From Escherichia coli (GTDB lineage Bacteria > Pseudomonadota > Gammaproteobacteria > Enterobacterales > Enterobacteriaceae), in assembly GCF_030013205.1 (NCBI RefSeq), contig NZ_CP122648.1: DNA of 64,000 nt, one strand, 5' to 3'. Below the pieces are notes generated by a model, which saw only the letters and a program-made list of their open reading frames with translations, did no database searches and was not told the DNA's origin. Position 1 is the stretch's first letter, and each line of letters starts with the position of its first letter. Shown here in pieces: positions 52,136 through 54,079 of the stretch. A program made the translations under genes and the position numbers.

Positions 52136-52465
52136 CTATGCCACGACCTGTTCAAAATCTGCCGTTATGGTTACCCACAACGCCCCCACGCTTGCCGACC
52201 ATTTACGACAAACCACCCTGATCGGCTTCCAGTCATAAGGTGGCGTCCACTGAAATGCGCGGACGCCACCGTGCCGTTCCAGAAAGGATTTTAAAGATGG
52301 GTGTTCACATTTACGAACACGTATCGTCACGCTGTAAGTCGACAACTGGTTATTCAGTCCCGCCGCACGACGCTGTTCATAACCATCGCCCAGCTTCACT
52401 GTCACCACTTTCGGCTCTGATACCACATTCATATCCGGGCGCACTTTCCAGTGAAACGTCTCCAT
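52136..52465 (-). CDS. Minor tail protein M (109 aa)
   Basis: 109-aa ORF in gpM position immediately upstream of L. Confidence 0.8.
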   Translation of the reverse strand: METFHWKVRPDMNVVSEPKVVTVKLGDGYEQRRAAGLNNQLSTYSVTIRVRKCEHPSLKSFLERHGGVRAFQWTPPYDWKPIRVVCRKWSASVGALWVTITADFEQVVA

Positions 52466-53250
52466 TACCGATATGCTCCACTTAACCGACCACCATCACG
52501 GGCCTGCTGTTGCATAAAGTCCGCTGCCGCTTTTTTCCCAAGGTCATAAACCACCTTCAGGGCAGCAGGACCTATCTGCCCGTTCGTGCCATCGTTATTG
52601 ATCTCGATGTTGTACTGCGGGGCAAACATCGCCATACCTGAACCACCAATATCCGCCACAACCCCCAGCTTACCGTCAGCACCACGACGCAGTGGCAGAA
52701 TGGCTTCAGGTCCAGCTTCCCCCATCACACCCGCGCCTTTTGCAAAAGCAAAAAACGTCGGACGGTTAACCACCGTGCCACTGTAGCGACTCAAATCAGC
52801 CGACTGATAAACACCGCCATCAGCATTGGCTACAAAATCAAAAGGCAGCGCGGAAGCAATGCCTTTTACCGCTTTCATTAAAGCTATCTGAGCCATGATT
52901 CTGGACATATCTGACAGCACAGAAGAGGTGAAGGATTTGAAATTGAGTTTGCCTGTAGTACAGAATGTCGCCAGCCAGTCACTCATGCTACTGAACGCAG
53001 ACGTGAACAACTGTTCCACTGTCCCGGCTGTGTTATCCGCATTCTCAGTGACATTCTGGAGTGCACGCAGGACTCCGTTTTTCCAATTACCCTGAGCAAT
53101 TTCAAGCCGTTGCCAGTAACGGCGATTCTCATTCAGTTGTCGGTTCAGACTCTCCGTCAGCGCCTGCTCGGCCTTTCTGTAGTCATCCGTGTTATATGTC
53201 CCTTTCTGCTCACTATCATGCCTTTCGGTGACATCAGTGTGTCTATCCAT
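52465..53250 (-). pseudogene. Tape-measure protein (gpH-like), C-terminal remnant only (~261 aa)
   Basis: ORF occupies the H position upstream of M but is far too short for a tape measure (lambda H is ~850 aa); abuts a truncated terminase gene. Confidence 0.6.
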
Positions 53251-53284
53251 CCGGCACGGTTAGCCAGCGTTATCCCGGATCCCC

Positions 53285-54079
53285 TCAGCCGGTCATGGCA
53301 TCCATAGCTGGCTGAAAATATTCACCGCAGTGCGGACATGGCCAGTACCAGCGGCGGCGGTCACCACGATTGTAAAGGGAAAGAATACCAGTCGTCGGTG
53401 GCGCTTCATGAGGCGACTTACGTCGCCATTTGCTGTCGCAGATGTCACGTCCCGGCGAGCTCTCCACCAGAGTCATCCCGGCGGACATAAATGTGGTGGT
53501 ACGTTTTGAGGCCAGGGAGAAACCATCACCCTCGCTGTCGATATTCTCCGGAAAACGGTCGTAATCGGTTAAGGCGACAAACCGGTAATCCGACGACGAC
53601 ATAATGTTGACCGAGGGCCAACCAATTTTAAGGAACGAGCCATCCCTGAACGTCTTATCATGGACATTATTGTCGTTACGACGTGGACTCATTCTTTTCT
53701 TTACCGCCGCACTGCTTCTGAACGTTCTGTCGAGGCGCTTTTTAGAATGCTCGCGGGCCTTATCTTCGGTCATCTGCACAACGAGCATGTCCGAAGGATC
53801 GCAAACGATGGTATAGACAATCCATCCATCGATCAGACCAATGGTCTTCCCTGTTCGCGCAGGACCAACAAAAATCACCGCATCGTATTCACGCGATGCC
53901 AGGCAGTTCATGGGCTCAATGATGTAGGGTGTCAGTTCAGGATCCCATGGCACCGAGTTACCAGCCCCCTTGGGAACACGCATGAATTTTTTAACAGCCT
54001 CCGAAATCGGCATGCGACGTGGTGGGGAAAATCCTGCCGATATGTCCCTTCCCAAATTTCGGGCTGATGAAAAACCCAT
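53285..54079 (-). pseudogene. Terminase large subunit (GpA family), N-terminal ATPase fragment (264 aa)
   Basis: Walker A VGPARTGKT; ..WYWPCPHCGEYFQP.. parallels the lambda gpA zinc motif; reading frame ends after 264 aa at 53285 where full-length terminases continue >350 aa. Confidence 0.7.

Follow-up and report, generated by a model that had tools for sequence, protein, structure and literature searches.

How a truncated large terminase gene and a truncated tape-measure gene came to lie side by side in a prophage of Escherichia coli, with none of the head and tail-shaft genes between them, is the question raised by the locus described here. The locus lies in a stretch of 64,000 nucleotides from the chromosome of E. 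coli ETEC4079, isolated from pig faeces in Belgium (positions 4662873-4726872 of NZ_CP122643.1, the record of a finished circular chromosome). This whole stretch is called the window, and coordinates are those of the window unless the record is named. An earlier note, made from the letters of the window, had described a terminase large-subunit open reading frame (ORF) of 264 aa, a 261-aa ORF in the tape-measure position separated from it by 34 bp, and intact M, L, K, I and J genes, and had proposed one internal deletion of roughly 10-15 kb. The coordinates and the RefSeq annotation bear out the description. The terminase ORF occupies 53285-54079 (264 aa plus stop), the tape-measure ORF 52465-53250 (261 aa plus stop) and the gap between them 53251-53284, and all genes of the scar region are on the minus strand.

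The core chromosome, from mdtN to dusA, fills positions 1-41000 of the window, and from about position 41004 it gives way to a lambdoid prophage with the following ends:

41004-42293, plus strand: left end of the prophage, with the repeat of the dusA 5' end (41004-41110) and a dusA-type tyrosine integrase gene (41196-42293).
4736580-4736684 of the record, beyond the window: attR, a partial copy of dusA.

The repeat of the dusA 5' end measures 107 bp and is present at both ends of the prophage, the left copy being 83% identical to that in attR. Thus, att repeats bound the element and its integrase lies at a recognized site, as defines an integrated prophage. The dusA gene is a documented integration site of a dedicated integrase family (Farrugia et al., 2015; PMC4482086), and as in other prophages and islands of this kind the tyrosine integrase adjoins the 5' end of dusA while a partial dusA copy marks the far end. 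However, that family is set by integrase and site, whereas the deletion in ETEC4079 is a secondary event in one strain (PMC4482086). From att to att the prophage measures 32,704 bp in ETEC4079 and 44,052 bp in the sister strain ETEC6333, so that 32.7 kb, or 74% of the 44.05-kb parental length, is left. According to the annotation, the remainder up to attR holds lysis genes, a tRNA-Gly gene, an AraC-family regulator, Q, and replication, immunity and early genes. Genes for portal, capsid, connector, major tail protein and G/T are absent from the entire annotated element up to attR, which disposes of the possibility, raised in the earlier note, that the head genes might be found in the part of the prophage outside the window. 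An 81-bp pseudogene relic annotated as 'capsid protein' (42600-42680), with an internal stop and located beside a DinI-like gene, recurs in each of the three dusA prophages examined, the intact ones of ETEC6333 and KGu016 among them, and is therefore an older remnant unrelated to the deletion. The tRNA-Gly gene (anticodon TCC; 57201-57275, minus strand) is carried by the prophage between the Q/cargo region and the lysis genes, and a cargo gene on the plus (opposite) strand between the endolysin gene and cos/terS (55058-55633), which ETEC6333 has in identical form, carries the annotation lipopolysaccharide core heptose(II)-phosphate phosphatase.

What the late region has lost can be read from ETEC6333 (NZ_CP122600.1; pig, Netherlands), where this prophage also sits at this dusA site, encodes the same integrase protein and is bordered by the same genes. 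Across the core part of the window (1-41100), 2 SNPs and two indels (1 bp and 30 bp) are all that separates the two strains. The ssb gene (28125-28631, minus strand) carries a 30-bp in-frame deletion at position 28228 relative to ETEC6333, which shortens the C-terminal linker region and gives an SSB of 168 instead of 178 aa (the ETEC6333 allele is also that of KGu016), and a 1-bp difference at position 9656 lies in nrfE, which is intact in ETEC4079 and annotated as frameshifted in ETEC6333. The late region of the ETEC6333 prophage is complete and its terS, terL, head and tail-shaft genes are collinear, running from a large terminase of 699 aa to a tape-measure protein (TMP) of 1018 aa and then to M, L, K, I and J (I is annotated as frameshifted). 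Between the positions that correspond to the breakpoints, ETEC6333 has the 3' part of terL, a W-like gene, the portal gene, a ClpP-like protease/major capsid fusion, a DUF2190 gene, head completion and neck genes, U, the major tail protein gene, G, T and the 5' part of the TMP gene, and this is the block lost from ETEC4079. In blastn comparisons, window 53287-64000 matches positions 24247-34960 of the ETEC6333 locus (L008) at 100.000% over 10,714 bp, window 53215-53289 matches positions 15196-15270, inside the TMP gene, at 100% over 75 bp, and window 52226-53217, the roughly 1 kb that adjoins the junction on its left, is identical to the 3' end of the ETEC6333 TMP gene. With identity on both sides and the genes between missing, the locus is an internal deletion relative to ETEC6333, and the match of the two stumps to that prophage is, judged by these alignments, far beyond chance. 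The comparison and the annotation also uphold the gene inventory given earlier, in which portal, protease/capsid, connector, major tail and G/T genes are missing while integration, lysis, regulatory, tail-tip and cargo genes are kept.

The scar itself consists of the following parts:

53288-54079, minus strand: terL' pseudogene, codons 1-264 of the gene for a 699-aa GpA-family large terminase.
53287-53289, no strand: junction J1, where terL nt 793 is joined to TMP nt 792 at a 3-bp microhomology, AGC (plus strand), with 8,979 bp missing.
53218-53286, minus strand: island of 69 bp (75 bp with both microhomologies) from inside the TMP gene, collinear and in native orientation.
53218-53250, minus strand: accidental start of the 261-aa ORF, an out-of-frame ATG at 53250 followed by 10 non-native codons (MDRHTDVTERH).
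53215-53217, no strand: junction J2, where TMP nt ~866 is joined to TMP nt ~2305 at a 3-bp microhomology, ATC, with 1,441 bp missing, out of frame.
52465-53214, minus strand: TMP' pseudogene, the final 250 codons (769-1018) of the gene for a 1018-aa lambda-type tape measure.

Both junctions were mapped by three-way alignment at the level of single bases, with offsets taken from blastn and ETEC4079 read from its finished assembly. The breakpoint mapping against an intact relative that had been called for earlier thus resolves the scar into J1 and J2. At J1, the AGC is common to terL nt 791-793 and TMP nt 792-794, and the loss spans terL codon 265 to TMP codon 263. The island that follows natively encodes TMP residues ~264-289 (LRGSGITLANRAGWIDTLMSPKGM). 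At J2, where the microhomology extends to 7 of 9 matches, the loss comprises TMP codons ~290 to 768, the central part of the gene. In total, 10,420 bp (8,979 + 1,441) are missing relative to ETEC6333, at the low end of the 10-15 kb first estimated; the proposal of one deletion has to accommodate two junctions around a 69-bp island. Every junction base is parental and none is untemplated, and the base-level alignment reveals no IS element, recombinase site or unexplained filler at either junction. The short direct repeats that the earlier note proposed to look for amount to 3 bp at each junction. A microhomology of at least 3 bp is expected at a random junction with a probability of about 0.05, so that two junctions with 3 bp apiece point to the use of microhomology. 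In fact, identity of 1-9 nt at the breakpoints without a mobile-element or recombinase site, the mark of microhomology-mediated illegitimate recombination, is found at both. Longer homology between the parental breakpoints of J2 was not found (local alignment score 22, vs 18.4 ± 2.2 for shuffled sequences), and a repeat scan of the parental TMP gene returned only short families at chance level.

The two stumps are exact fragments of the 699-aa and 1018-aa proteins of ETEC6333, as both the alignment and Pfam indicate, and not full-length proteins of other families. The 264-aa product of terL' is identical to residues 1-264 of the ETEC6333 large terminase, and its stop codon (TGA, 53285-53287) arises across J1. 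This product had been described as consisting of the ATPase domain only; however, the domain itself is cut, since the match to Pfam GpA_ATPase (E 1.4e-73) covers positions 2-208 of the 247 in the model and the ORF ends 5 residues further on. A nuclease domain was not found in terL' by Pfam, residues 265-699 being missing. With an incomplete ATPase domain and this nuclease region gone, terL' does not encode a functional GpA-family terminase, and RefSeq already marks it as a pseudogene 'missing C-terminus'. On the other side of the scar, the 261-aa ORF is tape measure in its last 250 residues, which are identical to the C-terminus of the ETEC6333 TMP, and not in its first 11 codons, which proved non-native when the island was translated in three frames and compared with the native TMP. 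The 1,441-bp deletion shifts the frame, so that translation from the ATG at 53250 begins with 11 codons that read the island by accident in a non-native frame, and direct inspection of the sequence reveals no Shine-Dalgarno motif upstream of this ATG. Pfam detects Tape_meas_lam_C in the ORF (E 4.5e-24) and this domain is complete in TMP', yet only residues 769-1018 of 1018 are in frame, which does not make a functional lambda-type tape measure. RefSeq marks TMP' (52465-53223) as a pseudogene 'missing N-terminus'. The two genes, earlier spoken of as fused, are juxtaposed: terL' and TMP' lie side by side and are not translationally fused. The scar has no function of its own.

Upstream of terL', the start of the late operon is retained:

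54088-54615, minus strand: terS, encoding the small terminase subunit (DUF1441 family), intact in RefSeq and with the same protein accession as in ETEC6333.
54800-54820, no strand: probable cos region, position 54811 aligning with the first base of the linear record of phage Tritos.

The terS homologue of Tritos is named 'Terminase small subunit'. Tritos, which resides as a prophage in E. coli LF82, is a viable siphovirus that produces plaques and particles (PMC9928086). Window 54811-53287 aligns by blastn with Tritos 1-1525 at 99.8%, and the match to phage cdtI falls at identical record coordinates. As judged from this alignment to the start of the Tritos record, cos is probably kept about 190 bp upstream of terS. 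A cos site and terS thus seem to persist in a prophage without the ability to make terminase. The stretch from cos through terS to terL' is 99.4-99.9% identical to Tritos and cdtI, the structural module of ETEC6333 is 96.8% identical to Tritos over 17.7 kb, and the gene order is that of Tritos (terS, terL, portal, protease/capsid, tail, TMP, M, L, K, I and J). In contrast, Tritos has another integrase, immunity region and lysis module, and it keeps the 10.4 kb missing in ETEC4079.

Downstream of TMP', the tail-tip genes follow:

46595-52465, minus strand: tail-tip genes M (52136-52465), L (51428-52126), K (50680-51423), I (50135-50782) and J (46595-50074), all five intact in RefSeq.

The block from about 44136 to 52225 (stf, J, I, K, L and part of M) is ~5% diverged from ETEC6333 and 99.8% identical to the dusA prophages of KGu016, FDAARGOS_1304, M21816, BEN5202 and AH21I008, and M, L, K and I share their protein accessions with the intact dusA prophage of KGu016. 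The ~5% divergence from ETEC6333 together with the 99.8% match to KGu016 points to a homologous exchange of the tail-tip/host-range module between the two ETEC lineages. With the M-to-stf segment ~5% different, ETEC6333 is, on alignment evidence, not the literal parent, and at least one further recombination separates the two prophages. KGu016 was considered as a better parent and set aside: its left arm, from int to M, is 99.8% identical, but its terS and terL are of a different type (73%) and its TMP gene matches the island at only 96%. Since the island is 100% identical to ETEC6333 and 96% to KGu016, the parental TMP gene was of the ETEC6333 type, and the deletion therefore took place inside an ETEC6333-type terL-to-TMP region.

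Taken together, we put the probability at roughly 90% that the scar stems from a deletion that arose recently, and in this strain only, in the lambdoid prophage at dusA. Its recency follows from the flanks, which are 100% identical to the intact sister prophage, and from the single genome that carries it: a 2.6-kb query across the scar finds a full-length 100% match only in NZ_CP122643.1, one of 5,426 complete E. coli genomes, and neither J1 alone nor J2 alone was found in any of the other genomes of that set. Microhomology-mediated illegitimate recombination, or alternative end-joining, occurs in E. coli, and its enzymology may involve RecBCD, LigA or template switching during replication. 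The scar resembles the products of such recombination in having 3-bp microhomologies and no IS element, site-specific recombination site or untemplated bases. It differs from a plain two-ended deletion in its collinear 69-bp island, which marks a more complex event, although the enzymology is not readable from the sequence. In the mechanism we propose, illegitimate recombination at 3-bp microhomologies would have removed 8,979 bp and 1,441 bp and left a 69-bp piece of the TMP gene in place. This could have occurred in one complex event, either by two template switches or by a single break repaired with a short templated patch.

Whether the two junctions arose together or one after the other is a narrower question. 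A single complex event is somewhat likelier than two separate deletions, with the molecular mechanism itself deduced from the junctions, as an independent second deletion would seldom end within 75 bp of the first. By our own estimate, the probability of a second independent endpoint within ~75 bp of an existing junction is well under 1% for a 44-kb prophage. The single-event reading draws solely on this closeness of J1 and J2 (69 bp), as no intermediate is expected under either model. Two deletions that occurred independently and in sequence (1,441 bp within the TMP gene and 8,979 bp from the TMP gene into terL), with ends that by chance fell 69 bp apart, make a weaker explanation that still deserves serious consideration. 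Each of the junctions resembles a simple microhomology junction, independent internal TMP deletions are present in other strains (e.g., VE-V10-F), and small deletions do accumulate in the ETEC4079 prophage, as is shown by a third one, of 897 bp at lom/stf, which lies apart from the other two. Against it stands, besides the proximity of the endpoints, the fact that either junction by itself is found in 0 of the 5,426 genomes. The third scar (46476-46480) lies between J, at 46595, and a truncated stf gene (44382-46487). Both ETEC6333 and KGu016 have the 897 bp, which take in the greater part of lom and the initial ~280 nt of the side tail fibre gene stf, and the junction has a perfect microhomology of CA (4 of 5 matches if extended). 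The internal TMP deletion of VE-V10-F (locus L014, 5327-7060), also present in VE-V11-M and VG48B2, lies in another prophage and is independent; its endpoints fall within 24 bp and ~85 bp of those of J2, and it may represent a short-tail variant or another step of decay. These three strains were examined as possible carriers of an intermediate, both TMP pieces lying close together in them, and rejected, because their deletion is a different one (1,332 bp, in frame).

A more speculative view of the deleted prophage is that the remnant is still a mobilizable replicon, packageable by a co-resident lambdoid helper with matching terminase specificity, and hence a satellite in the making. We consider this improbable; it is suggested by the retention of cos, terS, integrase, immunity, replication genes, Q and lysis genes, and two further places in the ETEC4079 genome match a query of island, terL', terS and cos. 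An existing phage satellite of the PICI or P4-like kind was rejected, as the junction occurs in 1 of 5,426 genomes and the gene content is that of the parent prophage minus the deleted block. Less probable again is an assembly artefact or a minority variant of the culture that hides an intact prophage in the true ETEC4079 chromosome. Such an error would account for a junction seen in one genome only, but assemblers collapse repeats and the breakpoints here share just 3 bp with no extended homology, a 69-bp island between two exact junctions is untypical of assembly error, and the record is that of a finished circular chromosome. Least credible of all is a mosaic joint formed by recombination with another phage, or an evolved satellite-like element in which the short ORFs would be functional full-length genes, for although lambdoid phages are mosaic, the M-to-stf segment was indeed exchanged and the element retains cos and terS, both sides of both junctions are identical to one prophage of the sister strain ETEC6333, the short ORFs are exact fragments of longer genes, that of TMP' beginning in out-of-frame sequence, and the architecture is conserved in no other genome of the 5,426. 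J1 and J2 were also rejected as the boundary of a foreign-phage mosaic on the position of the switch from 100% identity to ~5% divergence, which sits ~1 kb further left, inside M.

The recent deletion proposed here has counterparts elsewhere in the species. At least three independent juxtapositions of terL and TMP sequences beyond that of ETEC4079 occur in the data set. In the Qin-type prophage of TUM1887 a nearly full-length terL abuts the last 306 nt of the TMP gene; in the Qin-type prophages of the ECCWS199 group, 1,530 nt of terL are followed by 192 nt of the portal gene, a 1,407-nt remnant, in RefSeq a partial tape-measure gene, and directly after it tfaQ; and in a further prophage, that of EC2341, 309 nt of terL abut ~1,090 nt of the TMP gene. 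As terL (2.1 kb) and the TMP gene (3.1 kb) are the largest targets flanking the head/tail-shaft block, such juxtapositions would be expected. Qin, Rac and DLP12 are cryptic lambdoid prophages of E. coli, and the cryptic prophages of K-12 are much more eroded than that of ETEC4079. Like Qin, Rac and DLP12, the ETEC4079 prophage has lost morphogenesis genes and kept regulatory, lysis, tail-fibre and cargo genes. Its scar, however, is very young, located in a single genome and at dusA instead of the sites of Qin or Rac, whereas the cryptic prophages of K-12 are old and widely shared. Internal deletion of morphogenesis genes is the classic route to cryptic, or 'grounded', prophages (reviewed in PMC6379469). 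The event described here is of this known kind and represents ordinary, well-understood prophage decay.

As for its consequences, the prophage keeps its integrase, repressor/Cro, replication genes, Q, lysis genes, terS, tail-tip genes and cargo, together with the probable cos site, and would no longer be able to build heads and tail tubes or to cut and package DNA, so that a loss of particle formation is predicted. On its own this matters little, as it adds one more defective prophage, both stumps of which RefSeq already flags, and papers on ETEC4079, ETEC6333 or ETEC6334 were not found in the literature searched. The value of the locus is modest and resides in the clean, natural before/after pair formed by two near-clonal ETEC isolates from pigs (2 SNPs in 41 kb), which differ by three microhomology deletions of 8,979, 1,441 and 897 bp, all in one prophage. 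The independent terL-TMP juxtapositions suggest that deletions of the head and tail genes usually end in terL and the TMP gene, the two largest of the late operon, and junctions defined to the exact base, as in this pair, lend themselves to the study of the rate and mechanism by which prophages are disabled.
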